A stretch of DNA of 64,000 bases from an uncultured bacterium (GCA_965613025.1 CBFDUE010000001.1:80591-144590); one strand, 5' to 3'. Positions 27,397-63,153 are shown, numbered from the stretch's first letter. Numbers and translations: made by a program. The notes: generated by a model not told the origin, from the sequence alone.

Positions 27397-28298
27397 TAAA
27401 TCTGAATCAGCTTAGAGCATTTTATTGGAGCGCAAGGCATCTAAGCTTTACTAAGGCTGCAAAAGAACTATATGTATCTCAGCCTGCCATTACCACACAG
27501 ATCAGGCTCTTTGAGAAAGATCTGCAACTACAGCTTTTTAGAAGAAAGAGAGGAGGGAAGCTAATTCTTACAAGGGAAGGTGCGAGGCTATTTGAGTATG
27601 CGAAAAAGATATTTGAATATGAAGAGAGGCTGGAAGAGGTGATTGAAGATATAAGAAAATTAAAAGATAGAATTCTTCATATTGGAAGCGGAAGGAGCTA
27701 TGCCCATTATTTTGTTCCTTCCCTTATAGAATATTTCCATAAGGACCATCCTGAAATAAAGATAAAGGTTGAGGAAGGGAATTCACAAGATCTCATAAAT
27801 GGCCTCATTGAGATGAAAAATGAGGTGGCAATAGTATCTAAGGTGCTCGAACTTCCTGATATTAGATATGAGCTATTTAGTATGAAGGAGATCATTCCCA
27901 TTGTTCATATTTCACATCCCCTATTGAAGAAGAGATTCGTTAGCTTTCATGAGCTGGCACAAGAACCTATAATAATGAAAGAATCAGGGTCTGGGACAAG
28001 ATGGGTTGTGGAGGACCTTTTTAAGAGATATGGCTATGTGCCAAAGATAATAATGGAGGCAAGTGATGTGGAGATCATTAAGAGCATGGTGGAGCAGGGA
28101 AATGGGATTTCCTTTTTATTGTATGAGGCAGTAAAGAAAGATATCCAAAATAAGAGGATTGCAAGACTTCCCCTTAAAGGGCAAAAGATATATCTGGATA
28201 TAACCATTGCCTACCTCAAGGATCAGATTACCTTTCCTACCAAAGCGTTTCTTGACTGTATTAAAAGGATAAAAGAGGTCTCTGATTTCCATGTTTAA
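27393..28298 (+). CDS. LysR-family transcriptional regulator (paralog 2)
   Basis: 301 aa. MINLNQLRAFYWSARHLSFTKAAKELYVSQPAITTQIRLFE. Its start overlaps the UPF0261 stop (ATGA, 27393-27396). Confidence 0.9.
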   Translation: MINLNQLRAFYWSARHLSFTKAAKELYVSQPAITTQIRLFEKDLQLQLFRRKRGGKLILTREGARLFEYAKKIFEYEERLEEVIEDIRKLKDRILHIGSGRSYAHYFVPSLIEYFHKDHPEIKIKVEEGNSQDLINGLIEMKNEVAIVSKVLELPDIRYELFSMKEIIPIVHISHPLLKKRFVSFHELAQEPIIMKESGSGTRWVVEDLFKRYGYVPKIIMEASDVEIIKSMVEQGNGISFLLYEAVKKDIQNKRIARLPLKGQKIYLDITIAYLKDQITFPTKAFLDCIKRIKEVSDFHV

Positions 28299-28427: not shown

Positions 28428-30647
28428 ATGGAAAGGGAATATAAAGATGCAGAGGTAAAGAGATCCATGTGTTTCTGGTGCAAGCCCAGATGTATTTTGG
28501 ATGTGTATGTTAAGGATGGAAGGCTGCTTGGTGTAAGCAAATCCCCTATAAAAGGATGTCCCAGATGGAAGATAGCAAAGGAGATATTTTATAGTCCTAC
28601 CAGAACCACCTTTCCTATGAAGAGAGTTGGAGAGAGAGGAGAAAATAGATGGAAACAGATATCCTGGGATCAGGCCTTAGATGAGATAGCGGAGAGGCTT
28701 TCATCCATAAGGGATAGATATGGTGCAGAGGCTGTGGCACATCAGCACGGAACCAGCAGATCTTATGAAGAACTCCGAACTCGCTTTTTCAACCTCTTTG
28801 GAAGTCCAAATCACTTCGGCCAGGCACACATCTGTCATGGAAATTCCGCAGTGGTGGCATGTATGGTGTTGGGATGGTGGCCATATTGGATGAATGTGGA
28901 AAAGCTGGAGAAGGCAAATTGTATCTTCTTTGTAGGTCGAAATCCTATTCCGAGTCATCAGACAATAAGGGATGGCGTAGAGCAGGCCAGGAAGAGGGGG
29001 GCGACAGTTATTGTGGCAGATCCCAGACCATCTGATATAGTGAAGCATGCAGACATCTGGTTGAGATTGAGACCAGGTACAGATGCTGCACTTCTGCTTT
29101 CAATGATGAATGTAATTGTGAACGAGGATCTTTATGATAAAGAGTTTGTAAATAATTGGACATATGGTTTTGATAAGTTAAGCGATAGGCTAAAGGAATA
29201 TCCCCCAAGTAGAGGTGCTGAGATAACTGGTTTAAAAGAAGAAGATATTATAAAGGCAGCCAGGATTTATGCAACAAAAAGACCCTCATGTATGATGGAA
29301 GGAATGGGTGTTGCACATCAGCCCAATTCTCTAAATGCGCTACTCTGTCGCTATCTTATGCCTGCTTTAGTTGGCATGATAGATGTGGAAGGGGGAGAGG
29401 AGCTAATGGGCCCAGCTCCCATAATTACAGAACATGAGATTGAGCTTCCCGATATCCTTCCTGCTGAGCAGGCACAAAAAATGATAGGAAGTCAATATAG
29501 GCTATATTCCCATGAGGGATATGAGCTGATCCAGAAAAATGTGGAAAGGGTATGGGGTAAAAGATGTGATCTTCAGGTGTATATGAGATGTGCATCTGCC
29601 CCCCTTATCTTTCATGCGATGGCATATGGGGAGCCCTACCCTATAAAGGGTCTGATATGTGTCGCATGTAATCCCATGCTTACCATGCCAAATATAAAAC
29701 TGGTATATAAGGCATTAAAAAATTTAGAGCTTTTAGTGGTAGTGGATAAGGTCTGGACTCCCACTGCTCAGCTTGCAGACTATGTGCTACCAGCAGCAGA
29801 CTGGTTAGAGAGGGATTTTATATTTAATTACCATAATACCACTCCATTGATTATTGCAGGAGAGGCGGCCCTTCCAAAGACCATCACAGGGGAGTATGAC
29901 AGAAGGGATGATTTTGACTTCTGGAGAGGATTGGGAATAAGGCTTGGACAAAAGGAATATTGGCCTTGGGAAAGTGTTCGGGAATATTATGATTATAGAC
30001 TAAGGCCCATAGGACTGAGTTTTAAAGAGCTGGTTCAAATGGGCAAGTGGTTTCCTGAAAAGAGAGAATTTAAAAAATACATAAATAAAGGTTTTGGAAC
30101 ACCTACGGGCAAGGTGGAATTCTATTCTACAATACTAGAAAAACTGGGGTATGATCCACTTCCCAAGTTTGAGGAACCACCTGAAAGTCCCATAAGCAGT
30201 CCAGAACTTGCGAAGGAATATCCTCTTATTCTTATTACAGGTGGTAGATTTTTACCCTATTTCCATTCAGAATTCAGGAATATCCAGACCTTCAGAAAGG
30301 CCTATCCCTATCCCCAGGTGGAGATACATCCTGAAACTGCTAAAAACTATGGAATAGAAGAGGGAGACTGGGTCTGGATTGAGACACCACGAGGTAGGAT
30401 AGTTCAGAGATGCAGATTGGTGGACGAGATAGACCCAAAAGTTGTCCATGCCCAGCATGGCTGGTGGTATCCTGAACTTCCTCCAGAGGAGCCTTGGCTT
30501 CATGGAGTCTGGATATCCAATGTGAATGTGCTGACTGAAAAGGATCCAGATAAGGGTATAGATAAGGCATTAGGATCTTGGCCACTCAGGACCATGCTAT
30601 GCAGGATATATAAGGCCCGGGTATCAGATATTCCATTATTTTATTAA
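28428..30647 (+). CDS. Cytoplasmic bis-MGD (Mo/W) enzyme of the acetylene-hydratase-like clade, unknown substrate
   Basis: 739 aa. N-terminal [4Fe-4S] motif C15-x2-C18-x3-C22...C44 and no twin-arginine signal. Long stretches match my recollection of Pelobacter acetylenicus acetylene hydratase (RWKQISWDQALDEIAERL; ADIWLRLRPGTDAALLLSMMNVIVNEDLYDKEFVNNW; TPTAQLADYVLPAADWLER; GKVEFYSTILEKLGYDPLP...PELAKEYPLILITG). The metal-ligand Cys (C136 in HICHGNS) is conserved, but the catalytic Asp after the second Cys is Lys19. Confidence 0.75.
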   Translation: MEREYKDAEVKRSMCFWCKPRCILDVYVKDGRLLGVSKSPIKGCPRWKIAKEIFYSPTRTTFPMKRVGERGENRWKQISWDQALDEIAERLSSIRDRYGAEAVAHQHGTSRSYEELRTRFFNLFGSPNHFGQAHICHGNSAVVACMVLGWWPYWMNVEKLEKANCIFFVGRNPIPSHQTIRDGVEQARKRGATVIVADPRPSDIVKHADIWLRLRPGTDAALLLSMMNVIVNEDLYDKEFVNNWTYGFDKLSDRLKEYPPSRGAEITGLKEEDIIKAARIYATKRPSCMMEGMGVAHQPNSLNALLCRYLMPALVGMIDVEGGEELMGPAPIITEHEIELPDILPAEQAQKMIGSQYRLYSHEGYELIQKNVERVWGKRCDLQVYMRCASAPLIFHAMAYGEPYPIKGLICVACNPMLTMPNIKLVYKALKNLELLVVVDKVWTPTAQLADYVLPAADWLERDFIFNYHNTTPLIIAGEAALPKTITGEYDRRDDFDFWRGLGIRLGQKEYWPWESVREYYDYRLRPIGLSFKELVQMGKWFPEKREFKKYINKGFGTPTGKVEFYSTILEKLGYDPLPKFEEPPESPISSPELAKEYPLILITGGRFLPYFHSEFRNIQTFRKAYPYPQVEIHPETAKNYGIEEGDWVWIETPRGRIVQRCRLVDEIDPKVVHAQHGWWYPELPPEEPWLHGVWISNVNVLTEKDPDKGIDKALGSWPLRTMLCRIYKARVSDIPLFY

Positions 30648-31606
30648 GGGATGGAAACGGCAGGGAGGTTATTATCTAAATAGGATATAAGTTCACGAAT
30701 GCCATAGCCAGGTCTGAGTCCCTGGGCCATCTGTTTTAGCATTTCTAAGAATCTGGTTGCAGCAATAGAGAGGGGTTGGGTCTTTAGATAGGCAATGGAT
30801 ATATCTAAAAACAGCCTTTTACCCTCTAGGGGTCTGCTCTTTAAGACCCCTTTTTTTAACTCCTTATAAACTGCATCTTTCACCACAAAGGATATCCCAT
30901 TTCCTTGCTTTACAAGCTGTTTTATAAACTCAGTGTTACTGGTTTCCATAAGTATATTAGGGGTTATCCCTTTTTCGCTAAAGAGCCTGTCCACAATCTT
31001 TCTGGTTCCTGAACCTTCCTCCTTCATAATCAGGGGATAATCCATAAGCTCTTCAATCGATACCTCCTTTTCCTTTGTAAGAGGATGTCCTGGAGGAAGT
31101 ATAAGGATCAACTCTTCATGGGCAAAAGGGATGACCTCGATATCAGGATAGTTTTCAACCATTGCAATTATCCCAATCTCATTTTTTAAATCAAGGAGAC
31201 TGAGAAGGATATCTTTTGAGCTTCCTTCATTTAGAAAGATCTTTATCCCTGGATATCTACATCTAAAGTTCTGAACAATGTATGGCATAAAAAACCTGGC
31301 ATATGTTTTGGTGGTTCCTATTCTTAGAAGCCCTCTTTTTAACTTTTGAAGCTCTTCAATGGTATTTTCAATCTCTCTTTCAAATTCAAATACCTTTTTT
31401 GCAAGGTCAAAGAGAACCCTTCCTTCATCAGTAAGATGAATCCTTCTGCCCCTCTTTTTAAATAGCTTAAAACCACAGAATTTTTCAAATATCTTCAATT
31501 GGGCTGTAACAGCAGGCTGGGTAATAAAGAGATTTTTAGCGGCCTTGGTGCAGCTCATATACCTTGCGGTTTCATAAAAGATCCTGAGATGATTAAAGTT
31601 GATCAT
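30644..31606 (-). CDS. LysR-family transcriptional regulator (paralog 3)
   Basis: 320 aa. MINFNHLRIFYETARYMSCTKAAKNLFITQPAVTAQLKIFE, closest to paralog 2. Its stop codon overlaps the stop of the convergent bis-MGD gene. Divergent from the Pps-like operon. Confidence 0.9.
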   Translation of the reverse strand: MINFNHLRIFYETARYMSCTKAAKNLFITQPAVTAQLKIFEKFCGFKLFKKRGRRIHLTDEGRVLFDLAKKVFEFEREIENTIEELQKLKRGLLRIGTTKTYARFFMPYIVQNFRCRYPGIKIFLNEGSSKDILLSLLDLKNEIGIIAMVENYPDIEVIPFAHEELILILPPGHPLTKEKEVSIEELMDYPLIMKEEGSGTRKIVDRLFSEKGITPNILMETSNTEFIKQLVKQGNGISFVVKDAVYKELKKGVLKSRPLEGKRLFLDISIAYLKTQPLSIAATRFLEMLKQMAQGLRPGYGIRELISYLDNNLPAVSIP

Positions 31607-31636
31607 CCTAAATTACTCAATTCTTAACAATTTTAA

Positions 31637-31651
31637 TTATCTATAAGATAA
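31637..31651. promoter_or_regulatory. Candidate LysR operator: perfect 15-nt palindrome TTATCTATAAGATAA
   Basis: Located 31 nt upstream of the LysR-3 start, in the 216-nt divergent spacer. ATAAATAAAAT direct repeats at 31648-31658 and 31693-31703. A weak TTGACA-17-TTATGT at 31708-31736 faces the Pps-like operon. Confidence 0.35.
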
Positions 31652-31822
31652 ATAAAATAAATAATTTTCCATAATCTCAATTTATAAATAGCATAAATAA
31701 AATGCAATTGACAAGATCTTTTATGCATCTTTATGTTTCTTAAAAAATATCTTAAAAGGTCCTAATAAATCCTGTTCAAATGTTGGTCAAACCATTAACC
31801 CATCAAAAGAAAGGAGGAAGAG

Positions 31823-33676
31823 ATGAAAGAAAGAGGCAAATTCCCTGACCCCCACGAATTTAAAACTCCCCCAGAGCTGGATGGATGGGAGGAGATGTAT
31901 CCTTCCCATTACCTCTTTTCAAAGGACAGGGAGGAGTGGGAAAAGAGACAATTCTGGTATCAGGATAAGATCCATGATCCTGAGCCCTTGCCTCCTTTAG
32001 ATCTCATATTTCAAGAGGCATGGCAGATATCCCTTTCTCAGTATACCACAAGGGTATTCTGTATCCCTCCGGCACAGGGAATAGCACAGCGTATGGTAGG
32101 ATGTTACATGTATATCTGTGCTATAAACCCTCCACCAGAAGAGGTAATCGGTAAAAAGGCTCAGCTATTTGAAAAGAGGGTATTTCATGTCTTTAAGAAC
32201 TATGATGAGCTGTGGGACAAGTGGTTAGAGAAGTTCAAGAAATTGGGAGAGGAGATGGACAGCCTCCCTGTTCCCAAAGAGTTGCCTGAATTTGTTCCAG
32301 AAGATCAGGTCCTTCCTGCTCCCACTGGCTGCTATGTATCCTACGACCTTATGGAGGCATTTGATAAACTGGTAAATATGATGTTTAAGGGATGGCAATA
32401 TCACTTTGAAATGCTCAATCTCTCCTATCTTGCATACCTTATGTTTGCAGATGTGGCCAGAAGGCTCTTCCCTGGAATTAGTGAAAGTGCCATAGGAAAG
32501 ATGGTGGCAGGTGCCTATGTTGCCATGTTTAAACCAGAAGAAGAGCTATGCAGGCTCTCCCGTCTTGCCACATCCCTTAAAGGTGTCGCTGATATATTGA
32601 AATCAGACATGAAAGTGGAAGAGAAGATCTCTCAGCTTCAGCAGAGTGATGATGGAAAACAGTGGCTTGAGGAATATGAAAAGGCAAAGGATCCATGGTT
32701 CTATGTTTCCAATGGAAGCGGATGGTTTCATTATGAAGGAAGCTGGATCACACATCCTGAAATCCCCTTTGGCTATATCAAGAGCTACATAGAGAGATTG
32801 GGAAAAGGTGAAAAGATAGAAAGATCACTGGAAGATATAGAAAAGGAAAGGGAAAGGGTGCTGGAGGAGTATAGAAAACTCATAAAGAATGAGGAAGATA
32901 GAAAATCTTTTGATGACTCATACAATATCATAAGGACCATATATCGATTTGCAGAGGATCATCTGTTCTGGGTTGAGCACTGGTTCCACACCATCTGGTT
33001 TAAGAAGGTCAGGGAATTTGGCCAGCTACTTGTAAAATATGACATGTTAAATGAGGTGGACGATATCTTTATGTTCAACAGGTATGAGATCCCACAGCTA
33101 CTCACTGAGCTTTCCACTGCCTGGGCACTTGGAGTGGATGTTCCTGTAAGAGCAAGCTACTATAAAGGAAAGGCGGAAAAGAGAAGGAGGATCCTGGAAG
33201 CTGCCAGGCAATGGAATCCACCGCCTGCCCTGGGTGTTCCACCTGAAGAGGTGGCAGAACCTTTCACTGTGATGCTATGGGGAATCACGACAGAGAAAGT
33301 AAAGGAATGGCTAAAAGGTGTGGAAGTTCCTGAAGGTGAAGAGGTAAGTGAACTTAAGGGATTTGCGTCCTCCTCTGGTGTTACAGAAGGAAAGGCAAGG
33401 GTGCTCAAGTCCTTAGCAGATCTGGACAAACTTCAGGCAGGAGAGATTATGGTATGTCCTACCACTAACCCATCCTGGGCACCGGTATTTACAAAGATAA
33501 AGGCAGCTGTGACAGACATAGGGGGGCTTACAAGCCATGCTGCTATTGTGTGTCGTGAATATGGGCTTCCAGCTGTTACAGGCTGTGGGATTGCCACATC
33601 TGTTATAAAGACAGGAGATATCATAAAAGTAAATGGTGATGAAGGAGTGGTAACTATTTTGAAGAGAGCCGAGTAG
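31823..33676 (+). CDS. PpsA-like subunit: PEP-utilising-enzyme swivel phospho-His domain protein (phenylphosphate-synthase alpha-like)
   Basis: 617 aa (about 70 kDa). The C-terminus GEIMVCPTTNPSWAPVFTKIKAAVTDIGGLTSHAAIVCREYGLPAV carries the catalytic His (His572, codon 33536-33538). No ATP-grasp/PPDK_N domain in this chain. Confidence 0.7.
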   Translation: MKERGKFPDPHEFKTPPELDGWEEMYPSHYLFSKDREEWEKRQFWYQDKIHDPEPLPPLDLIFQEAWQISLSQYTTRVFCIPPAQGIAQRMVGCYMYICAINPPPEEVIGKKAQLFEKRVFHVFKNYDELWDKWLEKFKKLGEEMDSLPVPKELPEFVPEDQVLPAPTGCYVSYDLMEAFDKLVNMMFKGWQYHFEMLNLSYLAYLMFADVARRLFPGISESAIGKMVAGAYVAMFKPEEELCRLSRLATSLKGVADILKSDMKVEEKISQLQQSDDGKQWLEEYEKAKDPWFYVSNGSGWFHYEGSWITHPEIPFGYIKSYIERLGKGEKIERSLEDIEKERERVLEEYRKLIKNEEDRKSFDDSYNIIRTIYRFAEDHLFWVEHWFHTIWFKKVREFGQLLVKYDMLNEVDDIFMFNRYEIPQLLTELSTAWALGVDVPVRASYYKGKAEKRRRILEAARQWNPPPALGVPPEEVAEPFTVMLWGITTEKVKEWLKGVEVPEGEEVSELKGFASSSGVTEGKARVLKSLADLDKLQAGEIMVCPTTNPSWAPVFTKIKAAVTDIGGLTSHAAIVCREYGLPAVTGCGIATSVIKTGDIIKVNGDEGVVTILKRAE

Positions 33677-33691
33677 GAGGTAAAAGGTGTA

Positions 33692-34759
33692 ATGGAATAT
33701 GTAAAGGACTTTAAGGAACTTCGCAGGGATTCAATTCTTGAAGCAGGGGGGAAAAATGCATCTCTTGGAGAGATGATAGGAGCGGGTATCAGGGTCCCCC
33801 CTGGTTTTGCTGTTACCACAAAGGCATATCTGGATTTTTTGGAGAAGGGCGGAATCAGGGATGAAATATTTTCCATATTATCACAGATTTCCCCTGAAGA
33901 TGTGGAAGATCTCAACAATAAAAGCCTGAAGATAAGGGATCATATAAGATCCATAGATATTCCACAGGAAATAAAGAGTGCTATAGAAAAAAGATATGTA
34001 GATCTCTGCGATGTATGTGGTGTGGAGGATCTTCCGGTGGCAGTGCGTTCCAGTGCCACTGCAGAGGATCTTCCCACTGCAAGCTTTGCAGGGCAGCAGG
34101 AGACATATCTCTGGATCAGGGGGGTAGAAGAGGTGGCATCTAAGGTGAGGGACTGCTGGGCCAGCCTCTTTACTCCCCGTGCTATAAGTTACAGGATAAA
34201 GAACAGGTTTTCCCATGAAAAGGTCTTAATCAGCGTGGGTGTTCAAAAGATGGTAAATTCAAGGACCGCTGGCGTAATGTTTACTCTTAACCCTATAGAT
34301 GGGGATCTATCCAAGGTGGTGATTGAAGGTAGCTGGGGATTGGGTGAAAGTGTGGTCTCTGGTTCAGTTACTCCTGATAAATTCGTGGTGGACAAGGTGG
34401 TGCTTGAGATAACAGAGAGAACCATATCCAGAAAACATATACAGTGTGTATATGATCCTTTGGAGGGAAAAGTGGTGGAGAAGGATATGGAAGAGGATAT
34501 GCAAAATATGTGCTGTCTTCAGGACGAAGAGATCAAGGAGCTGGTTAAGATGGCAAAGAGGATTGAAGATCACTATGGCACTCCCATGGACATAGAATGG
34601 GCAATAGACAATGATCTGGAATTCCCAGAGAATATCTTTATTGTCCAGGCAAGGCCGGAAACAGTGTGGAGTCAGAAGAAAAAGGGCCCCGTGATCGGTA
34701 AAAAGAGCGGATTTGAACTTCTTATGGAGCAGGCAATGAAGAGGATAAAACTGTCTTGA
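33692..34759 (+). CDS. PpsB-like subunit: PPDK_N ATP-grasp (nucleotide-binding) protein
   Basis: 355 aa (about 40 kDa). GGKNASLGEMIGAGIRVPPGFAVTT and VAVRSSATAEDLPTASFAGQQETYL are PEP synthase/PPDK N-terminal domain motifs. Confidence 0.7.
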   Translation: MEYVKDFKELRRDSILEAGGKNASLGEMIGAGIRVPPGFAVTTKAYLDFLEKGGIRDEIFSILSQISPEDVEDLNNKSLKIRDHIRSIDIPQEIKSAIEKRYVDLCDVCGVEDLPVAVRSSATAEDLPTASFAGQQETYLWIRGVEEVASKVRDCWASLFTPRAISYRIKNRFSHEKVLISVGVQKMVNSRTAGVMFTLNPIDGDLSKVVIEGSWGLGESVVSGSVTPDKFVVDKVVLEITERTISRKHIQCVYDPLEGKVVEKDMEEDMQNMCCLQDEEIKELVKMAKRIEDHYGTPMDIEWAIDNDLEFPENIFIVQARPETVWSQKKKGPVIGKKSGFELLMEQAMKRIKLS

Positions 34760-34780
34760 TATAGGAGGAAATTTTCTAAG

Positions 34781-36010
34781 ATGCCTTCAATATTGCTTAT
34801 TTCCACTTTAAATACAAAAGGAGAGGAGACTGCATATCTAAGAGATAGATTAAAGGCCCTGGGATCTGAGATCATAACAATGGATCTATCCATGCAGGAA
34901 GGAAGCCTCTGGAAGGCAGAGATACCACCAAGGAATGTGGCAGAGGCAGGAGGAGGGAAGTGGGAGGAGATCCTCTCTTCTACTGATAGGGCAAAGAGCA
35001 CTGAGGTGATGATCAGGGGAGCAATTAAGAAGGCAAAGGAGTTATGGGAAAGGGGAGAAATCCAGGGTGTTATAGGAATCGGGGGCTCCACTGGATCATT
35101 GATGGCAACAGAGGTTATGAGGGCGCTTCCTTTTGGAGTTCCAAAATTGATGATCTCCTCCACTGCGGCTCTTCCTGGGCTTTCCACAAGATACATAGGA
35201 ACTGGCGATATAATGCTCTTTCATTCAGTTATTGAGATATCTGGTCTGAGTGATCTCTTAAAAAATGTGCTTGATCGTGCAGCCCTTTCAATGCATGAGA
35301 TGGCAAGGGGCCAGATGTCATCCATAAGAACAGATACAGATAGAAAGAGAATTGCCATGACTATGCTTGGGCCATGTGAGGGCTGTGCGCACAGGGTGAG
35401 AGAAGCACTTGAAAGAGAAGGTCTTCAGGTAATAGGATTTTCAGCGGCAGGAATTGGGGATAGGGCTATGGATGAGATGATTCTTCAGGGCCTGTTTCAT
35501 GGTGTGGTGGATCTTGCACCAGGCGGAATAGGTGAGCATATGTTTGGGGGAATGAGAGACGCAGGGCCTCAGAGGATTGAGGCTGCATGTTCAGTGGGTA
35601 TCCCTCAAGTTATTACGCTCTGCAGTGTTAATCATCTGACCATTAGAAAGAGTAAATATAAACCTTCTGATTATCAACGTCCCATGTATCATCTGGATAG
35701 ATACAGAACCTGGCTCAGGACCACAGAAGAGGAATTATACAATATTGGAAAGGAATTTGGCAAAAAACTCAATAGGGCGAAAGCAGAAGTGGTTATCCTT
35801 TTTCCCCAAAAAGGATGGTCATCTGTGGATAGACCAGGAAATCCAACCTATAATCCAGAACAGGATAGGATCTTCTTAAAAGGTCTTGAGGAAAACCTGA
35901 CAAATAATAATATTGAGATAATAGAGGTGGATGCTAATCTGGAAGATAAGGAATTTTCAGATGCGCTTATCTCAGCCGCAAAGAGACTCTTTTTAAATAG
36001 AAAGGAGTGA
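34781..36010 (+). CDS. UPF0261 family protein (Tm-1-like ATP-binding domain), copy 2
   Basis: 409 aa. Paralog of 26194-27396 (ILLISTLNTKGEETAYLRDRLKALG; GVIGIGGSTGSLMAT; PKLMISSTAA). It starts 21 nt after the PpsB-like gene. Confidence 0.7.
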   Translation: MPSILLISTLNTKGEETAYLRDRLKALGSEIITMDLSMQEGSLWKAEIPPRNVAEAGGGKWEEILSSTDRAKSTEVMIRGAIKKAKELWERGEIQGVIGIGGSTGSLMATEVMRALPFGVPKLMISSTAALPGLSTRYIGTGDIMLFHSVIEISGLSDLLKNVLDRAALSMHEMARGQMSSIRTDTDRKRIAMTMLGPCEGCAHRVREALEREGLQVIGFSAAGIGDRAMDEMILQGLFHGVVDLAPGGIGEHMFGGMRDAGPQRIEAACSVGIPQVITLCSVNHLTIRKSKYKPSDYQRPMYHLDRYRTWLRTTEEELYNIGKEFGKKLNRAKAEVVILFPQKGWSSVDRPGNPTYNPEQDRIFLKGLEENLTNNNIEIIEVDANLEDKEFSDALISAAKRLFLNRKE

Positions 36011-36017
36011 GGGATTT

Positions 36018-36518
36018 ATGGAAAAGGCTGATATCTTAAAAGGAAAAAGGGTTCTTGTTGTTGATGATGAAAAAGACGTACTTAATACTGTAAAGGATAT
36101 CCTTTACATGTGTGAACTTGACCTTGCATCAAGCTTTGAAGAGGCAAAAGAGCGGCTTGAATCAAGACACTATGATTTAGTGGTATTGGATATCATGGGG
36201 GTAGATGGATACAGACTACTTGAGATATCAAAAAGAAAGAATATTCCTGCAGCCATGTTCACTGCCCATGCATTTAGTGCGGATAACCTTAAAAGATCAA
36301 TTAATGAAGGCGCTTGTGCCTATATACCTAAGGAGGAGATGAGTTCCCTTCCAGATTTTCTATCAGATATCTTTAAGGCAATAGAGGAAAGAAAAGATCC
36401 ATGGGAATCATGGAGAGAGAGGCTTCCCTCCTCCTATTTTGAGACAAGATGGGGTGCCGCCTGGAAGGATCAGGACAGAGACTTTTGGGAGAGATTCTGG
36501 TCAAGCAGAAAGAAGTAA
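36018..36518 (+). CDS. Stand-alone response-regulator receiver domain with Trp-rich C-terminal tail
   Basis: 166 aa. Complete acceptor set D16/D17 (VVDDE), D58 (VVLDIMG), T82 (MFTAH) and K105 (YIPKE). The 45-aa tail contains six Trp. No output domain. Confidence 0.8.
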   Translation: MEKADILKGKRVLVVDDEKDVLNTVKDILYMCELDLASSFEEAKERLESRHYDLVVLDIMGVDGYRLLEISKRKNIPAAMFTAHAFSADNLKRSINEGACAYIPKEEMSSLPDFLSDIFKAIEERKDPWESWRERLPSSYFETRWGAAWKDQDRDFWERFWSSRKK

Positions 36519-36530
36519 TAGTTACTGCGA

Positions 36531-37121
36531 ATGATGAAAAAAAGAATAGTAATTGGGATATCGGGTGCAAGTGGTGTAATTTATGGAATAAGGCTACTTG
36601 AAATTCTAAAAAAGATGGGCTCTTGGGAAACCCATCTTGTAATTACAGAGGCGGCAAAGAAAAATATAGAAATTGAAACAGATTATAGGTTAGAAGATGT
36701 GGAAGAGATGGCATCCTTTTCATACGCCCAGGATGACATGACAGCCCCCATATCCAGTGGTTCCTTTTTAACCGAAGGAATGGTGGTAATACCCTGTGCC
36801 ATAAAGAGTCTATCTGGAATCGCAAACTCCTTTAATACCAATCTGCTGGTGCGTGCAGCAGATGTGACTTTAAAAGAGAAAAGAAGACTGATTCTGGTGG
36901 TAAGAGAGACCCCTCTTCATATGGGACATTTAGAGCTTATGAAGAAGGCCGCTTTAATGGGAGCCATAATCCTGCCTCCCATTCCTTCCTTTTATCATCA
37001 ACCTAAAAGCATACAGGACATAATAGATCATATTATTGGGAAGATTTTGGATCATTTTAAAATAGAGCATCAACTCTATAAGAGATGGTCTGGTGTTAAA
37101 CAGAATAGGTTATCTTCTTAG
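36531..37121 (+). CDS. ubiX: Flavin prenyltransferase UbiX (prFMN synthase)
   Basis: 196 aa. KRIVIGISGASGVIYGIRLLEIL and VIPCAIKSLSGIANSF. Confidence 0.9.
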   Translation: MMKKRIVIGISGASGVIYGIRLLEILKKMGSWETHLVITEAAKKNIEIETDYRLEDVEEMASFSYAQDDMTAPISSGSFLTEGMVVIPCAIKSLSGIANSFNTNLLVRAADVTLKEKRRLILVVRETPLHMGHLELMKKAALMGAIILPPIPSFYHQPKSIQDIIDHIIGKILDHFKIEHQLYKRWSGVKQNRLSS

Positions 37122-37860
37122 ATATCTTATAAGAGGCCTTTTTTATCTCTCTTTTTAACAGCTCCATCTTATTATCATCAAGTGTTCTTTTAAAACCCAC
37201 AACCCATAAGGCAAAAGGAACACCTCTAATGATCTTTATAGGAGATGCCACTGCTCTAACCCCTATGAGATATTCTTCATAATCTGTGGCATAGTCCTTT
37301 TTGCGGACCTCTTTTAAGATCTGGATATAATGATCAGGATCAGTTATAGAATTGTCAGTAAATCTGGGTAGCCCCTTTCTATTAATAATATCTCTTGCTC
37401 TATTTTCATCCATCATGGAAAGGAAGACCTTCCCCACTGCGCCTGCAAATAGGGGAATACTTGTTCCTTTTGGTGAGATTATCCTTATATCCTGATCTGA
37501 CTCCACCACATCCACAATGGTGACCCTTTCCCCATTTAAGAAACCCAAAAATACCGTTTCCTGAACCTTTTCCATTAGCTCTTCCATAATGGGTCGTGCC
37601 ATATCTCTGATATCCATAAAGGCAAGGGTGGATCTGCTGAGTTCCATTAAGGCCATGCCCAGATAGAACTTCCTCTTTATGGGATCCTTATATAGAGCCC
37701 CCACTTCCTCCAAGGCATGGGTTATTCCATAAACTGTCCCCTTACTCATATTCAGTTCCCTTGCAATTTCACTTATACCTCTTCCATTCCTGCTTGTTCC
37801 AATATATCTCAATATCTCAAATGCCTTTCTTACTGAAGGGGCTCTATATCTTTTAGCCAT
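37096..37860 (-). CDS. IclR-family transcriptional regulator
   Basis: 254 aa. N-terminal wHTH (SVRKAFEILRYIGTS...GISEIARELNMSKGTVYGITHAL) and a C-terminal IclR effector domain. Its 3' end overlaps ubiX by 26 nt (convergent). Confidence 0.85.
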   Translation of the reverse strand: MAKRYRAPSVRKAFEILRYIGTSRNGRGISEIARELNMSKGTVYGITHALEEVGALYKDPIKRKFYLGMALMELSRSTLAFMDIRDMARPIMEELMEKVQETVFLGFLNGERVTIVDVVESDQDIRIISPKGTSIPLFAGAVGKVFLSMMDENRARDIINRKGLPRFTDNSITDPDHYIQILKEVRKKDYATDYEEYLIGVRAVASPIKIIRGVPFALWVVGFKRTLDDNKMELLKREIKKASYKISKKITYSV

Positions 37861-37980: not shown

Positions 37981-38508
37981 ATGGATCGAGATATATTAAG
38001 AACAGAGATTCAACGACTCATTGAGGAAAACAGGCTCAATTACTGTCTTGAATGTGGCAAATGTTCAGCAATATGCCCGATGAATCAGTTCTACGAAGGA
38101 CTTGAATACAGATATTCACCCAGAGGGGTCATAGAAAAAGTGCTTTTTAACCCTGAAAGTGTATATGATAATGAGGATATCTGGTTCTGTCTGGCATGCA
38201 ACAGATGCACAGAGAAGTGCCCCTGTGGTATAGATTTTCATTCATTTATGACTTCCCTTAGAACCCTTCTCATTTCAAATGGATTTGATAAATATGGACA
38301 CTTCTGTTATAGATGTAAAAGCTATATTATGCCAAAGACAGAATATGAAATCTTGATCCAAGGAGATAAAGGCCGAATCTTAACGCCCTTATTACAGCTA
38401 TGTGATAGATGCAAAAAAGAGGAGTTTATAGAAAGTCTCTATATCTATAGCTCATGGCCAAAGAAAAATAAAAGAGAGGTGAAGGGATATGAAAAAGAAA
38501 AAGGTTAA
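37981..38508 (+). CDS. HdrC-like 2x[4Fe-4S] protein with C-terminal Zn-ribbon
   Basis: 175 aa. Two CX2CX2CX3CP motifs (CLECGKCSAICP, CLACNRCTEKCP) plus CYRC...CDRC. Confidence 0.6.
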   Translation: MDRDILRTEIQRLIEENRLNYCLECGKCSAICPMNQFYEGLEYRYSPRGVIEKVLFNPESVYDNEDIWFCLACNRCTEKCPCGIDFHSFMTSLRTLLISNGFDKYGHFCYRCKSYIMPKTEYEILIQGDKGRILTPLLQLCDRCKKEEFIESLYIYSSWPKKNKREVKGYEKEKG

Positions 38509-38764
38509 AGAAACCCTTTCATCATCACAAGAATTGAGTAAATCCAGGACCTTTGGAAAGGTCAGGTGTCACAATCCAAGCTGTATGGACAGGATTGAGC
38601 CTCCTCCTGGTGCAGATAGGGTAAAATGTCCCCGATGTGGAATGGAATATAGGCTTGTATGGGTTAATCCACAACTTCCCCGCATTAGGGGTCCTGTCTG
38701 GGAGGTAAATAGGAGGCTTGCAGAGGAGCGTATAAAACAGCTTCAGTCAGAGGGGCAGCTATAA
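38489..38764 (+). CDS. Small Zn-ribbon protein, unknown function
   Basis: 91 aa. CHNPSC...CPRCG four-Cys motif. Overlaps the upstream gene by 20 nt. Confidence 0.45.
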   Translation: MKKKKVKETLSSSQELSKSRTFGKVRCHNPSCMDRIEPPPGADRVKCPRCGMEYRLVWVNPQLPRIRGPVWEVNRRLAEERIKQLQSEGQL

Positions 38765-38790
38765 TTAGGAGGTTTAAAGGAGGAAATGCT

Positions 38791-40731
38791 ATGGCACTAA
38801 ATAGAAAGATAGCATATATCGATTTGAGTAAAGGAAGTGTGGAGATAAGATCCATCCCATTGGGAGTGAGAAGGAAGTTTCTGGGGGGAAGAGGCCTTGA
38901 TGCATATCTACTCTATAATCATACAGAAAAGGGATGCGATCCATTGGGACCAGATAATGTTCTCATAGTGAGTGCAGGATTACTTGCAGGGACATGTGCA
39001 TCTGCAACCGCTCGCAGCCATTTTATGGCCAAATCTCCATTGACCGGACTTATTGGAAGTGCAAATATGGGTGGATTTTTTGCACCAGAGCTTGCATGGG
39101 CAGGATTTCATCATTTAGTGATAAAGGGAAAGGCAAAGAAACCGGTATTTTTATGGATTCATAACGGAGAGATTGAGATAAGGGATGCCGAGTTCCTCTG
39201 GGGAAAGACCACGACTGAGACCCAATGGGCCATTAGGGATGCACTTGGAGATGAAGAGATCAAGAGTGCAGTGATTGGACCTGCTGGAGAAAATCTGGTC
39301 CGTTTTGCTAATGTCATGACGGGCTTTAAAAACGCTGCAGGCAGAACTGGTATGGGATGTGTGATGGGTTCAAAGAATCTTAAGGCCATTGCAGTAAGAG
39401 GCACAATGGATATAAAGATTGCCCATCCCATGGATGCCTTAGGATACAATAAGAAGTTTATTGAACAGATCACTAAGGCAAAGGTAAGTCAGACCCAGGG
39501 AAAACTTGGAACTCCTTTTATTTGGGGTGCAACTAATTGCTGGGGAGGAGTAAGAAACAGGAACTTTCAATATAATCAATTGGAATATGCTGATGAGGTA
39601 GAACCAGAGGCCATTGATGAAGCGGCCACTAAGACAATTGGCCCCTATCATATGACAGGCTGTTTTGCGTGTCAGGTGCACTGTCGTGGCCAATATCGTA
39701 TTCCGAGCGGCCCTTATAAAGGTGTCTATGATGAAGGACCTGAATATACCTCCATAGGTGCATTTTGTTCAGAGCCAGATTGTAGAAGTATTGAGACATT
39801 GCTTACAGGAAATCATTTAGTAAATCAATATGGTGTGGATAATCTCGAAATCGGAAGCCTTATCTCCTGGGCAATGGAGCTCTATGAAAAGGGAATTATT
39901 ACGGATAAAGAGACTGAGGGGCTGGATCTTCGCTTTGGAAATGATGAGGCTCTGTTGGAGATGGTCCACAGGATATGTAATCGTAAGGGATGGTTGGGCA
40001 ATGTCCTTGCAGATGGAGGTATTCCAGCAGCCAAAAAGATAGGAAAAGATTCCATCAAATACCTTGTCCATGTAAAAGGAATGCAGAATCTGCACTCAGA
40101 TGAAAGACCCACTCCTGCACTTGCCTTAGGAATTGCAACTGCAACAAGAGGTTCGGATCATTTAAGGAGCAGACCTGCAATAGACCTCTATCATCTTCCT
40201 GAACCGGTGCTCAGAAAGATCTATAGTAACCCCATCCCCTATGAAGGACCGCTCAGCTCTGAGCATACCTCTTATGAAGGGAAGGCATGGATGGTGTTTT
40301 GGCAGGAAAACTGCTATATGGCAGTAGATTGCTTAGGTATATGTAAATATCATACGGTATTCTTAGGTGCAACCCTTCCCAATTTTGAAGAGTGGACAAA
40401 GGTGATCTATTATAATACTGGTCTTGAATTTACTCCTCAAGAACTCTGGGAGATTGCTGAAAGATGTTATAATATTGAACGGCTCTTTAATCTCAGGGAA
40501 GGTCAGCGAAATGATGATCCTGCAAAGTGTGATTGGCTTGTGGATAGATATTTTGATGAACCATGTCTAAGGGGAGCCCCTGATGTAATTGGTGCCAAGA
40601 TTGATAGAGATAAATTTAAGAAGATGCTGGATGAATATTACCAGCATCATGGATGGGATGAAAACGGTGTGCCTACTGAAGAGACCCTTAAGAGATTGGG
40701 AATAGATAATGAACCCTCTCATCTTCTTTAA
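38791..40731 (+). CDS. Tungsten-type aldehyde:ferredoxin oxidoreductase family enzyme
   Basis: 646 aa. AOR N-terminal domain (FLGGRGLDAYLLY, SPLTGLIGSANMGGFFAPELAWAGF, GPAGENLVRFANV, GSKNLKAIAVRG). Middle and C-terminal regions GPEYTSIGAF and ATATRGSDHLRS. Confidence 0.85.
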   Translation: MALNRKIAYIDLSKGSVEIRSIPLGVRRKFLGGRGLDAYLLYNHTEKGCDPLGPDNVLIVSAGLLAGTCASATARSHFMAKSPLTGLIGSANMGGFFAPELAWAGFHHLVIKGKAKKPVFLWIHNGEIEIRDAEFLWGKTTTETQWAIRDALGDEEIKSAVIGPAGENLVRFANVMTGFKNAAGRTGMGCVMGSKNLKAIAVRGTMDIKIAHPMDALGYNKKFIEQITKAKVSQTQGKLGTPFIWGATNCWGGVRNRNFQYNQLEYADEVEPEAIDEAATKTIGPYHMTGCFACQVHCRGQYRIPSGPYKGVYDEGPEYTSIGAFCSEPDCRSIETLLTGNHLVNQYGVDNLEIGSLISWAMELYEKGIITDKETEGLDLRFGNDEALLEMVHRICNRKGWLGNVLADGGIPAAKKIGKDSIKYLVHVKGMQNLHSDERPTPALALGIATATRGSDHLRSRPAIDLYHLPEPVLRKIYSNPIPYEGPLSSEHTSYEGKAWMVFWQENCYMAVDCLGICKYHTVFLGATLPNFEEWTKVIYYNTGLEFTPQELWEIAERCYNIERLFNLREGQRNDDPAKCDWLVDRYFDEPCLRGAPDVIGAKIDRDKFKKMLDEYYQHHGWDENGVPTEETLKRLGIDNEPSHLL

Positions 40732-40743
40732 GGAGGAAAAGAA

Positions 40744-41247
40744 ATGGAAAAGGTGCTATTGATAGACTATGAAAAGTGTACAGGTTGCAGACTGTGTGAG
40801 CTTGTCTGCTCTGTGGTTCATGATGGAGTATCCAATCCAGAGAGGAGCAGAATAAGGATTATAAAGAAGGAAGAGGAAGGCCTGTATATCCCGGTAACCT
40901 GCAGGCAGTGTGAAGATGCCCCCTGTATGAATGTATGTCCTGTAAAGGCCATATCCAGAGACGAAGACTATGACTTTGTAAAGATTGACTATGACCTCTG
41001 TATTGGTTGTAGAAGCTGTGTAATGGTGTGTCCTTTTGGGGGTATGAACTATAATCCCATAGAGAGAAAGGTATTTAAGTGTGATCTTTGTGGTGGGGAT
41101 CCCCAGTGTGTAAGATTCTGTGAGGTAAAGGCGATTGATTTTGTAGATGCTGATAGAGTTAGCCTGCTCAAAAAACGAAAGACTGCAGATAAGGTGCTTA
41201 TCTCAAGGAAGGAAATCATTCCCTCCTCTCAAGAGATGTATATATAA
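40744..41247 (+). CDS. Polyferredoxin (multiple [4Fe-4S]) electron-transfer partner
   Basis: 167 aa. CTGCRLCELVC, CRQCEDAPCMNVCP, CIGCRSCVMVCP and CDLCGGDPQCVRFC cluster motifs. Confidence 0.8.
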   Translation: MEKVLLIDYEKCTGCRLCELVCSVVHDGVSNPERSRIRIIKKEEEGLYIPVTCRQCEDAPCMNVCPVKAISRDEDYDFVKIDYDLCIGCRSCVMVCPFGGMNYNPIERKVFKCDLCGGDPQCVRFCEVKAIDFVDADRVSLLKKRKTADKVLISRKEIIPSSQEMYI

Positions 41248-41306: not shown

Positions 41307-41330
41307 TTATAATTGAAGGAGAAGATACCT

Positions 41331-42341
41331 ATGGGAAGTGTAAAAGATATGGTAAGGGTAAAAGGCAAGATAGGGAGATTTATCTTCTCTGATAGATACT
41401 CGGTCTTTGATTGGGGACAGATGCCAGATCTTATTGAAGACAAAGGGAAGTCTCTCTGTCTAAGTGCAGCATATTTCTTTGAAAGGCTGGAAGAGAGAGG
41501 ATTTAAGACACATTATATGGGGATTGTTGAAGATGGAAAGCCAAAGAGACTAAATGAGCTAAAAGCTCCACAGAGTATCATGCAATTTAGGCTATTTGAT
41601 GTGATAAAGCCGCTTAGGAATGATTCAGGATATGACTATTCTGTATTTAAGGATCTAAAAGGCGGTTTTCTTATCCCCTTGGAGATCATATACAGAAATG
41701 CCCTACCCCCTGGATCATCTGTATTTAAGAGGCTGAGAGAGGGAAAGCTTACTCCTCAAGATCTGGGTCTTACTGAGATGCCCAAAGAGGGGCAGATTCT
41801 GGAAAGTCCCATACTGGATGTATCCACCAAGCTGGAGGAGACCGATAGATACCTGAGTTGGGAGGAGGCAAAGTCCATAAGTGGTCTTACTGATAAGGAG
41901 ATGGATCAGATAAGGGAACTCACATTAAGCGCAAATTCCCTTATAAGTGAGTCTGTCTCCAGGATAGGACTCTTTAATGAAGATGGCAAATTTGAATTTG
42001 CGATGGATCAAGATAGATCCCTTGTATTTGTGGATGCCTTAGGAACCTTAGATGAATGTAGATTTACATTTAAGGGAATACCTGTTAGCAAAGAGATTGC
42101 AAGGATATATTATAGAAAGACCAATTGGTTTCAGGATGTGGAAAATGCTAAGAAAAGAGATATGATAAGATGGAAGAAATTGGTAAATTCTTCTCCCCCT
42201 CCCCTTCCAAGGGAACTTTACAATACCCTATGTGATATATATAGGGGATTTGTAAATGAATTAACCCAGAGAGAGTGGTTTAAGGTGCCTCCATTAAAAG
42301 ACAGCCTTAAAATAATAAAGGATTTTTTTACATCCCTATAA
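41331..42341 (+). CDS. purC: SAICAR-synthase-family protein (PurC-like, long form)
   Basis: Start moved to ATG 41331 (GGAG upstream). RFIFSDRYSVFDWG, IPLEIIYRN and EDGKFEFAM...VFVDALGTLDECRF fit the SAICAR_synt pattern. Confidence 0.65.
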   Translation: MGSVKDMVRVKGKIGRFIFSDRYSVFDWGQMPDLIEDKGKSLCLSAAYFFERLEERGFKTHYMGIVEDGKPKRLNELKAPQSIMQFRLFDVIKPLRNDSGYDYSVFKDLKGGFLIPLEIIYRNALPPGSSVFKRLREGKLTPQDLGLTEMPKEGQILESPILDVSTKLEETDRYLSWEEAKSISGLTDKEMDQIRELTLSANSLISESVSRIGLFNEDGKFEFAMDQDRSLVFVDALGTLDECRFTFKGIPVSKEIARIYYRKTNWFQDVENAKKRDMIRWKKLVNSSPPPLPRELYNTLCDIYRGFVNELTQREWFKVPPLKDSLKIIKDFFTSL

Positions 42342-42350
42342 CATTTTGCC

Positions 42351-42821
42351 TTACTTCGTTTGTAAGATACCCTCCAATTCATCAATTAAAGGGACCTGAT
42401 AAGAATGGATCTTTTCTCTTGCCATATCAAGTGTAAACCAATCAGCCCTATCTATCTCTGGAAATCTCTTGATCTTTCCTGACCTTGGAGGCCATTCCAT
42501 CTCAAAGGTATTGCTCTTAATGGCGTTAGGATCCACATCTCCTTCAAATGCCCAGGCATAGACTATCTTGCCTCCTTTTTGTCTTATAGGTGATAGGGGA
42601 ACAGGGTCTTTAAGCAACATATCCAGACCTGTCTCTTCCTTAAACTCCCTTATGGCAGCATTCAAAGGATCTTCACCCTCTTCAATCAGTCCCTTAGGGA
42701 TGGACCATGCTCCTCTATCTTTGTTTTTCCAAAAAGGCCCTCCAGGGTGCACCAATAAGACCTCTATTCCCTTGCCCTCTCTCTTTCTATAAAGCATAAT
42801 ACCTGCACTCTTTTTAGCCAT
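42351..42821 (-). CDS. NUDIX hydrolase
   Basis: Start moved to ATG 42821 (MAKKSAGIMLY..., AGGAGGGC upstream). NUDIX box GLIEEGEDPLNAAIREFKEETG. Confidence 0.85.
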   Translation of the reverse strand: MAKKSAGIMLYRKREGKGIEVLLVHPGGPFWKNKDRGAWSIPKGLIEEGEDPLNAAIREFKEETGLDMLLKDPVPLSPIRQKGGKIVYAWAFEGDVDPNAIKSNTFEMEWPPRSGKIKRFPEIDRADWFTLDMAREKIHSYQVPLIDELEGILQTK

Positions 42822-42908
42822 ATAAGCCCTCCTAAGGGATCTTGTAAAAATATAATACTTGACAACGATAATAAAACGATAATAAAAAGAACACAAAATA
42901 CTATAGGA

Positions 42909-58617: not shown

Positions 58618-58622
58618 AGCAC

Positions 58623-59108: not shown

Positions 59109-59113
59109 CCCAC

Positions 59114-59977: not shown

Positions 59978-59986
59978 GGCATTCTC

Positions 59987-61291: not shown

Positions 61292-61297
61292 AAGATC

Positions 61298-63093: not shown

Positions 63094-63153
63094 CTTATAT
63101 CTTCCTCTTTTCTCCCCAGGCCATATGGCCTGGGGAGAATCTAATTATACAGA

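Follow-up and report, generated by a model that had tools for sequence, protein, structure and literature searches.

Among described systems, the one closest to the locus analyzed here is the phe cluster of Desulfatiglans anilini (H567DRAFT_02049-02059), which is induced by phenol (Xie & Muller 2018, PMC6114531; Xie et al. 2020, PMC7500099) in an organism whose extracts convert phenol to phenylphosphate (PMC6114531). This cluster encodes the phenylphosphate synthase subunits alpha and beta (Pps-alpha and Pps-beta), a single UbiD of the PpcB type, a ligase resembling dihydroxybenzoate-AMP (DHB-AMP) ligases, a UPF0261 family protein, UbiX and a stand-alone receiver (REC), and lacks PpsC, PpcC and PpcD; the genes lie on one strand in the order UbiD-ligase-UPF0261-UbiX-XDHbca-PpsA-PpsB-REC, where XDH stands for the xanthine dehydrogenase family. 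The same genes are present, and the same ones missing, in a 64,000-nucleotide stretch of DNA from an uncultured bacterium, a member of the Desulfobacterales (GCA_965613025.1 CBFDUE010000001.1:80591-144590; hereinafter the window, that is, the whole of this stretch), which contains an operon of five genes at positions 31823-37121. Judging by gene content, the locus is a rearranged copy of the published D. anilini-type cluster for phenol activation and carboxylation in strict anaerobes. An earlier note on this DNA had considered an undescribed activation system, a suggestion that does not survive the comparison with the phenol-induced phe genes.

The PpsABC/PpcABCD system of Thauera aromatica shares with the window the dikinase chemistry, the domain split, the swivel His, a PpcB-type UbiD and UbiX (43%, 53% and 48% identity for PpsA, PpsB and PpcB, respectively), whereas the window lacks PpsC, PpcA, PpcC and PpcD and has Thr rather than Met two positions before the catalytic His; conversely, Thauera-type loci have no UPF0261, receiver or extra ligase. 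The Geobacter-type pps-ppcB operon (Gmet_2100-2102 in G. metallireducens), compared here through two loci from metagenome-assembled genomes only (L046 and L050), has one UbiD, of the PpcB type, immediately downstream of PpsAB and ahead of UPF0261 and UbiX, as in operons related to that of the window, and likewise lacks PpcA, PpcC and PpcD. It differs in that PpsA, with 43% identity to the window protein, is Thauera-like, UPF0261 is of type C (36-37% identity, motif NLDTRG), PpsC is present after UbiX, and both the receiver and the DHB-AMP-ligase-like gene are absent. The HpeHI, AcvAB and CreHI enzymes of aerobes are also two-component systems with a substrate domain similar to that of rifampin phosphotransferase (RPH) and convert ATP to AMP and Pi (PMC12167813, PMC9618137), but they belong to another clade, partner with a biotin carboxylase or an oxidase and have no UbiD near their loci. 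RPH itself is an antibiotic-resistance enzyme, a single chain with a fused ATP-grasp domain. Finally, MarK (Saro_1862, PDB 9mpy), a UPF0261 protein described in 2025, phosphorylates a phenolic hydroxyl with conversion of ATP to ADP (PMC12624787); its genomic partner is the AcvCDEF carboxylase, in contrast to UbiD and the ligase in the window.

The five genes of the operon, and the two genes of the window that complete the D. anilini-type set, are as follows:

31823-33676, + strand: PpsA-like alpha subunit, 617 amino acids; RPH-type substrate-binding domain and C-terminal swivel domain with the catalytic His572
33692-34759, + strand: PpsB-like beta subunit, 355 amino acids; stand-alone ATP-grasp domain (PPDK_N)
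34781-36010, + strand: UPF0261 protein of type A, 409 amino acids; UPF0261 N and C domains
36018-36518, + strand: stand-alone receiver, 166 amino acids; Response_reg, 45.9 bits
36531-37121, + strand: UbiX flavin prenyltransferase, 196 amino acids; Flavoprotein domain; NF004685, 265 bits
23745-25148, - strand: PpcB-type UbiD (phenylphosphate carboxylase beta-like); TIGR02724, 489.6 bits, cutoff 468.95
22071-23717, - strand: DHB-AMP/salicylate-AMP-ligase-like aryl-acid adenylating enzyme; 79% identity to D. anilini H567DRAFT_02058

All five domain assignments in the operon are strong family matches that are not due to chance. Searches for open reading frames (ORFs) and domains place the five + strand genes, their domains, His572 and the 7- and 12-nucleotide spacings exactly where the earlier note had put them. 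The genes are separated by 15, 21, 7 and 12 nucleotides, and four of the five are preceded by a GGAGG-type ribosome-binding site; given these short gaps and Shine-Dalgarno sites, the five genes fit a single transcription unit.

In the kinase pair, the 617-amino-acid protein contains the PEP-utilizers mobile domain alone (residues 538-608) and the 355-amino-acid protein PPDK_N alone (residues 18-333, 410 bits); in neither is there a match to PEP-utilizers_C, the TIM-barrel that binds phosphoenolpyruvate (PEP) or pyruvate. The catalytic His572 (of 617) is part of GGLTSHAAIV, and the segment TDIGGLTSH fits the T/SxxGGxxxH motif of two-component small-molecule dikinases, whose catalytic His lies within about 50 residues of the C terminus. 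The separate subunit consisting only of an ATP-grasp domain, as expected of a two-component dikinase, is encoded next to the alpha subunit, its start lying 15 nucleotides beyond the alpha gene. Over residues 6-615 the alpha subunit matches NF006153 (PRK08296.1-5) with 886 bits (cutoff 578), and this family is the sole sequence match for residues 1-500, the sequence relatives in the PDB being restricted to the last ~100-130 residues. When an AlphaFold2 model of the alpha subunit (mean predicted local distance difference test score, pLDDT, 89.8; predicted template modeling score, pTM, 0.88) was compared to known structures with Foldseek, RPH alone aligned over the full length (query TM-score 0.62, E ~1e-18, 19% identity), whereas the alignments of PPDK, Enzyme I and pyruvate kinase were limited to the swivel domain (~120-130 residues for PPDK/PEP synthase). 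PpsB shows a strong match (266 bits) to the 387-amino-acid stand-alone chain 9goj, which we take to be HpeI. A natural PpsB-PpsA fusion was also identified (P0125), and a Rosetta-stone search recovered PpsB-PpsA fusions only, none involving UPF0261. The NF006153 membership, the full-length fold match to RPH only, the ATP-grasp partner and the natural fusions refute a PEP synthase reading; the pair belongs with the two-component small-molecule dikinases and is neither a PEP synthase nor a PPDK, which bears out the split PpsA/PpsB-type assignment of the earlier note. The same RPH-like fold has been published for HpeH (PMC12167813). By analogy with these relatives, the predicted activity of the pair is the ATP-dependent phosphorylation of a phenolic hydroxyl with release of AMP and Pi; measurements of aryl phosphorylation come solely from extracts of D. 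anilini, which has the 64%-identical orthologue (PMC6114531).

Close homologues of the alpha subunit (76-80% identity) number in the hundreds and come from Desulfobacterales metagenomes; at 50% clustering the alpha subunit forms a cluster of its own, beyond which identity to full-length relatives drops to 35-45%. When GTDB species genomes were scanned with an 8-sequence alignment, a 28-sequence alignment being too diverse as a seed, 80 loci were obtained. Approximately 30 of these, with 61-78% identity, belong to Desulfobacterales, Desulfatiglandales and Syntrophaceae, and also to Archaeoglobus, Caldilineae and Acidobacteriota, and the rest, with 41-47% identity, include Thauera aromatica, Azoarcus, Geobacter, Syntrophorhabdus and Desulfobacula. 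The window proteins and the Thauera reference proteins were mapped onto these 80 loci. A second, independent scan of metagenomes anchored on the window UPF0261 gave another 80 loci, for a total of 160; the PpsA-anchored counts out of 21, 40 and 61 loci below refer to loci with at least 5 kb downstream.

In phylogenetic analysis, the window PpsA and D. anilini Pps-alpha fall within one clade (hereinafter clade W) in 100% of 200 neighbor-joining bootstraps. The Thauera, Geobacter and CreH/HpeH-like proteins all lie outside clade W, which is itself placed outside the group uniting Thauera PpsA with the actinobacterial CreH/HpeH-like proteins; the window alpha subunit is 64% identical to that of D. 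anilini vs 43% to Thauera PpsA. A signature of the clade is a Thr two residues ahead of the catalytic His, in the motif GGxT(S/C)H, which is found in every clade-W sequence and otherwise only in the nearest outlier (L036), this position being occupied by Met in all other PpsA/CreH/HpeH-like sequences. The window residue is Thr570 (approximately nucleotides 33530-33532), and a Thr is found there in PEP synthase and PPDK as well. In those enzymes, it is the regulatory phosphorylation site. In its distribution, the Thr of clade W goes together with the stand-alone receiver. Two archaeal copies of PpsA were detected, one from Archaeoglobus sp. inside clade W (L028; 66% identity, UbiD and UbiX nearby) and the other, the nearest outlier itself, from Halobellus sp. 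(47% identity, no UbiD nearby); these copies point to cross-domain horizontal transfer of the module.

The D. anilini genes entered the comparison as a metagenome contig (Ga0209164_1000190; locus L097). Seven of eight protein monoisotopic masses from this locus coincide to four decimals with those in Table_1 of PMC7500099, the proteins have the same lengths as those of D. anilini, and the identities to Thauera PpsA, PpsB and PpcB (42%, 38% and 49%) equal the published D. anilini values; these matches identify L097 as the phe cluster of D. anilini (DSM 4660). The UPF0261 protein of this locus has the same length as its D. anilini counterpart and differs by 72 Da, consistent with one Gly/Glu substitution. 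A placement of D. anilini Pps-alpha by His position and length was also tried and rejected as not discriminating, His569 being common to many lineages. The window proteins are 63-64% (PpsA), 74% (UbiD, Ppc-beta2), 79% (ligase), 61% (UPF0261) and 65% (UbiX) identical to the D. anilini ones, and the entire D. anilini-type neighborhood, with a single PpcB-type UbiD, the DHB-AMP-ligase-like gene, UPF0261 and UbiX, is found in the window. The differences are in arrangement: the XDH trio is located 19 kb downstream, and an acetylene hydratase (Ahy)-like enzyme and three LysR genes are inserted.

Public proteomes of D. anilini show how the homologous genes respond to substrate. The UPF0261 protein H567DRAFT_02057 (403 amino acids) has peak areas of 0 / 5.0e7 / 5.3e7 / 2.5e9 on 4-aminobenzoate, aniline, benzoate and phenol, respectively (PMC7500099), i.e., is ~50-fold higher on phenol, and the 175-amino-acid stand-alone CheY-like protein H567DRAFT_02050, with 1.1e9 / 8.8e8 / 6.9e8 / 6.0e9 on the same substrates (PMC7500099), is 6-9-fold up on phenol. 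The ligase H567DRAFT_02058 is phenol-induced as well and was called 'function unknown'. A second UPF0261 protein (03869), encoded next to an acyl-CoA synthetase in the aniline cluster, was detected only on aniline and 4-aminobenzoate (PMC7500099). Neither PMC6114531 nor PMC7500099 discusses the UPF0261 protein or the receiver, and no paper found in the literature discusses the role of UPF0261 in phenol clusters; papers on anaerobic benzene metabolism proved to concern other genes.

The UbiD at 23745-25148(-) is the only one in the window; it lies, as the earlier note had observed, on the other strand, and is located 6.7 kb upstream of the operon, beside the AMP-ligase-like gene, whose product probably traps the hydroxybenzoate as a CoA ester. 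Searches of the 64-kb window with tblastn for Thauera PpsC, PpcC, PpcD and LpdD gave no match, and none of the Thauera-type carboxylase subunits alpha (a second UbiD), gamma (10 kDa) and delta (a HAD phosphatase) was found in the window. The absence of gamma and delta subunits noted earlier holds for the window, but it is not a departure from known phenol systems, being already known for D. anilini and Geobacter metallireducens. In the usual operon of close relatives, a LysR gene on the opposite strand is followed by PpsA, PpsB, UbiD, in some cases REC, the ligase, UPF0261, in some cases LpdD, and UbiX, often with a second UPF0261; a variant order is PpsA-PpsB-UbiD-UPF0261-LpdD-UbiX-REC-UPF0261-ligase (L006), and genes for the LpdD-type chaperone of prenylated flavin mononucleotide (prFMN) are present in many related operons. 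By this comparison, the UbiD and ligase genes of the window genome have moved ~7 kb upstream to the opposite strand, and this rearrangement is the unusual feature of the window.

The association of these genes is reproduced by both scans. Of the 21 PpsA-anchored loci of clade W, 16 contain UPF0261, 13 contain REC and 12 contain UbiX, and all of them lack PpsC and PpcD. In the UPF0261-anchored loci, the ligase is immediately upstream in 40/47, UbiD is upstream in 37/38, UbiX is within 1.6 kb downstream in 43/51 and PpsA is in the locus in 26/26, and neither PpcC nor PpcD was found anywhere in the 80 loci. Taken together, the two scans indicate that the UPF0261/REC/UbiX linkage to the Pps pair is real and widespread rather than unique to this genome, so that uniqueness, which the earlier note had named as a refuting outcome, does not apply, and the coupling to a prFMN-dependent UbiD/UbiX carboxylase proposed in the earlier note is equally well founded. 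The UbiD is 71-79% identical across both kinase lineages. In particular, nine loci (L115, L122, L123, L131, L135, L136, L140, L141 and L160), combine UbiD-ligase-UPF0261, with UbiD 71-76% identical to that of the window, with PpsC and a PpsA that is 63-66% identical to the Thauera protein. The presence of one carboxylase module with two PpsA lineages implies that the kinase and carboxylase modules recombine independently.

The UPF0261 proteins encoded in the related loci fall into five subtypes. The 409-amino-acid type-A protein of the window aligns with MarK (9mpy) over the full length (32% identity, 199 bits) and, in its nucleotide site (TLNTKG), retains T12 and K13, the equivalent of Lys16, whereas Asp14 is replaced by Asn11. 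The phenol-binding residues G195, H219 and H304 are over 90% conserved among MarK homologues; all type-A sequences instead carry GPSAAG and lack both histidines, which are kept together in one subtype only. That subtype, type E, is found in L039, L042, L043, L060, L029 and L011, in the first four of these directly after PpsB, and its copies in Syntrophorhabdus-type loci are, by their sequences, better candidates for MarK-like phenol kinases acting beside PpsAB. The substitution of UPF0261 for PpsC, which the earlier note had taken as a departure from the known phenol system, is rejected as an explanation: UPF0261 co-occurs with PpsC in 12 of the 24 PpsC-positive loci, and Geobacter-type and several betaproteobacterial loci have the order PpsA-PpsB-UbiD-UPF0261-UbiX-PpsC. 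The gene that UPF0261 avoids is PpcD, with UPF0261 present in 32/39 PpcD-negative vs 1/11 PpcD-positive loci (Fisher p = 1.8e-5, in a test that counts loci without regard to phylogeny), and it anticorrelates likewise with PpcC and PpcA. Loci of the UPF0261 and PpcD architectures are intermixed within a set of closely related PpsA sequences from betaproteobacteria, a pattern suggestive of carboxylase modules that can replace one another. From these gene associations, the type-A UPF0261 is best described as a conserved accessory of the carboxylase module, and the idea of an accessory component advanced in the earlier note stands. Tentatively, it might act as a nucleotide-dependent, phosphoryl-handling partner of the lone UbiD, in place of the PpcD phosphatase and PpcA/C. 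A more specific version, in which UPF0261, possibly with the Asp of the receiver, would move the phosphoryl group of the aryl phosphate to ADP, i.e., run the MarK reaction in reverse with recovery of one ATP, is rather doubtful. If true, such a step would account for the failure to demonstrate carboxylase activity under the conditions applied to D. anilini extracts, and for the ability of sulfate reducers to sustain a pathway whose cost is put at as many as 4 ATP equivalents.

The receiver possesses all canonical residues (DD16/17, D58, T82 and K105), which are invariant in 18 orthologues with 40-64% identity to the window protein, as are the motifs VDDE, LDIMGV, LTAHA and Y(I/L)PK. In place of an output domain, there is a conserved Trp-rich tail of ~40 amino acids at the C terminus (PWxxWxxRLPSSYFExRWGAAWxDxDxxFW). 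None of the window ORFs scanned contains a histidine-kinase domain; a kinase might be encoded elsewhere in the genome. The receiver is nearly confined to clade W (13/21 loci vs 1/40 others) and, speculatively, could be a clade-specific modulator or phospho-acceptor; it is chemically plausible, again as a speculation, that the phospho-His swivel domain or the aryl phosphate serves as its phosphodonor.

These observations are best accommodated if the five genes are the kinase half, with accessories, of a D. anilini-type anaerobic pathway from phenol or a close analogue to hydroxybenzoyl-CoA, a reading to which we assign a probability of roughly 0.7. Phenol itself would be the likely substrate. 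From homology to Thauera PpsAB and HpeHI, we infer this substrate and the following mechanism. The ATP-grasp domain of PpsB would present ATP to PpsA, where His572 on the swivel domain would be pyrophosphorylated, with loss of the gamma-phosphate; the beta-phosphate would then pass from His572 to the phenolic hydroxyl in the RPH-like domain, the net conversion being that of ATP to AMP and Pi. The aryl phosphate would be carboxylated by the lone PpcB-type UbiD (23745-25148, - strand) with prFMN supplied by UbiX, and the DHB-AMP-ligase-like enzyme would trap the acid as a CoA thioester.

Several observations weigh against this pathway assignment or against the role that it gives to the accessories. 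The window alpha subunit scores 622.6 bits against the equivalog model NF006152, under the cutoff of 723, compared to 1324 bits for Thauera PpsA, and identity between PpsB and the D. anilini beta subunit, which belong to different lineages, is only 44%. No enzyme of clade W has been purified, and 64% identity leaves room for another phenolic substrate. Geobacter-type loci, like most others, have no receiver. With regard to UPF0261, the Asp at the MarK Asp14 position is found in most type-A orthologues, whereas this genome has Asn, and of the phenol-binding residues only Gly195 is kept (G197), with His219 replaced by S221 and His304 by D306. Apart from the disregard of phylogeny in the Fisher test, there are single-UbiD loci that have the ligase without UPF0261 (L044, L070, L077 and L081) or have neither (L005), and PasAB with two UbiD subunits sufficed for aniline in vitro.

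The Joint Genome Institute annotation of homologues ('pyruvate, water dikinase') corresponds to the possibility that the pair is a split PEP synthase/PPDK of central metabolism that neighbors aromatic genes by chance. The PPDK_N and swivel domains are indeed common to PEP synthase, and Thr570 resembles its regulatory Thr; yet there is no PEP/pyruvate-binding domain, residues 1-500 match PRK08296 and by fold the rifampin-binding domain of RPH, and a link between the pair and UbiD is seen in 50 of the 61 PpsA-anchored loci (17/21 in clade W and 33/40 among more distant ones), which leaves this possibility with next to no probability. The same architecture could also serve a substrate other than phenol, namely, cresol, catechol, hydroquinone, hydroxybenzaldehyde or aniline, with clade W as a specificity variant. 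The position of the clade outside the group of Thauera PpsA and CreH/HpeH-like proteins, its private Thr, the nearby acetylene-hydratase-like enzyme and aldehyde:ferredoxin oxidoreductase (AOR) and the promiscuity of HpeHI and PasAB are all compatible with such a shift, and the occurrence of the same carboxylase module with a Thauera-like PpsA in some Desulfobacterales loci implies that the kinase lineages could differ in substrate. Nevertheless, we consider it fairly unlikely: the sole experimentally anchored member of clade W, D. anilini Pps-alpha, is induced by phenol in an organism whose extracts make phenylphosphate, the UbiD passes the PpcB cutoff and is well conserved across both kinase lineages, and Pps-alpha shares only 27% identity with Pas-alpha, the aniline kinase.

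Two further alternatives concern UPF0261. MarK, the only characterized member of the family, phosphorylates a phenolic hydroxyl, and the type-E protein that follows PpsB in Syntrophorhabdus loci keeps both MarK histidines, so UPF0261 might be an independent aromatic kinase (ATP to ADP), parallel to or cheaper than PpsAB and not a partner of the carboxylase. For the window protein, this is unlikely, considering that the type-A copy lacks His219 and His304, that type A is tied to the UbiD-ligase pair and not to PpsAB, and that the anticorrelation with PpcD/C/A is not expected of a redundant kinase. Less probable still is a function of UPF0261, possibly together with a NUDIX hydrolase, in the supply or maturation of prFMN for UbiX/UbiD, for example in making dimethylallyl monophosphate (DMAP). 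The proximity of UPF0261 to UbiX in most loci (the 43 of 51 mentioned above) and the NUDIX genes in the window (42351-42896) and in L005 would agree with such a function. But Thauera-type clusters that have UbiD and UbiX without UPF0261 argue against a general role in prFMN supply, many of the same operons already include a dedicated LpdD-type prFMN chaperone, and we know of no UPF0261 protein that acts on prenols. Among these possibilities, the D. anilini-type pathway, with UPF0261 as an accessory of the carboxylase, remains the preferred reading. What is new in the locus, then, concerns UPF0261, the receiver and the ligase. The phenol literature has drawn these three as blank arrows, yet they are conserved across more than 100 loci in many phyla, and in the single organism for which proteomes exist each of them is induced by phenol or aniline. 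UPF0261 occurs in loci that lack Thauera PpcA/C/D, and its family has been known since 2025 to transfer phosphate between ATP and phenols. The roles of the three proteins bear on the question, posed in PMC6114531, of how phenylphosphate is carboxylated in strict anaerobes that have PpcB alone, and of how the energy cost is paid.

Other features of the window are the following:

31607-31822, no strand: divergent control region, AT-rich, 216 bp; one sigma-70-like match at 31708-31737
30644-31606, - strand: LysR-type regulator, divergent; domain match, same position in related loci
37096-37860, - strand: IclR-type regulator, convergent with UbiX, overlapping the 3' end of UbiX by 26 nucleotides
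26194-27396, + strand: second UPF0261 paralogue, type B; DSKG motif and His219 equivalent kept, 34% identical to the type-A copy
37981-41247, + strand: HdrC-like Fe-S protein, 91-amino-acid ORF, AOR-type tungsten aldehyde:ferredoxin oxidoreductase and poly-ferredoxin; domain and family matches
56218-61291, - strand: XDH-family trio and PaaK-like CoA ligase; family scores below equivalog cutoffs

The sigma-70-like site in the control region is a consensus match only, and in a scan of this region for promoters and terminators, promoter-like sites were not enriched compared to shuffled sequence. A LysR gene on the opposite strand directly 5' of PpsA is found in most clade-W loci. Four transcription-factor genes within 13 kb (three LysR and one IclR) make up an unusually dense set of regulators. 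The type-B UPF0261 gene, which the earlier note had missed, is located between two LysR genes (25261-26190 and 27393-28298) and recurs at the edges of related operons, including that of D. anilini (L097).

In D. anilini, as in many other loci, the XDH trio comes after UbiX; together with the PaaK-like ligase, it is probably, as far as sequence similarity can tell, a 4-hydroxybenzoyl-CoA reductase and a 4-hydroxybenzoate-CoA ligase that would carry out the downstream steps. TRAP transporter genes accompany the trio and the ligase (56218-63933, - strand), and the FAD subunit is short (287 amino acids). In L131, L135, L141 and L148, UbiX is followed by the 91-amino-acid ORF, AOR (76-77% identical) and the Fe-S protein, and the AOR set is repeatedly found after UbiX in related phenol operons, L022 and L038 among them. 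This recurrence hints at an aldehyde intermediate or a role in electron supply. An assignment of this AOR as a BamB-type benzoyl-CoA reductase was rejected, with 340 bits to the true AOR of P. furiosus vs 225 bits to BamB.

Directly upstream of the pps operon, between LysR genes, there is a 739-amino-acid enzyme of the molybdenum/tungsten-bis-pyranopterin guanine dinucleotide type (28428-30647, + strand) that matches acetylene hydratase (2e7z) over its full length with 457 bits, the next best match, to a reductase, scoring 237 bits. It is predicted to be a hydratase-like enzyme beside the phenol genes. L005 and L010 show the same order of enzyme, LysR and PpsA (62% identity), and in L151 a copy is located after UbiX. 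Finally, the AOR set of the window is followed by a long SAICAR-synthetase-like gene and the NUDIX hydrolase gene (41313-42896 together, with NUDIX at 42351-42896); in L005, a NUDIX gene (8185-8598) lies directly upstream of PpsA. The NUDIX enzyme could make DMAP from dimethylallyl diphosphate (DMAPP) for UbiX.

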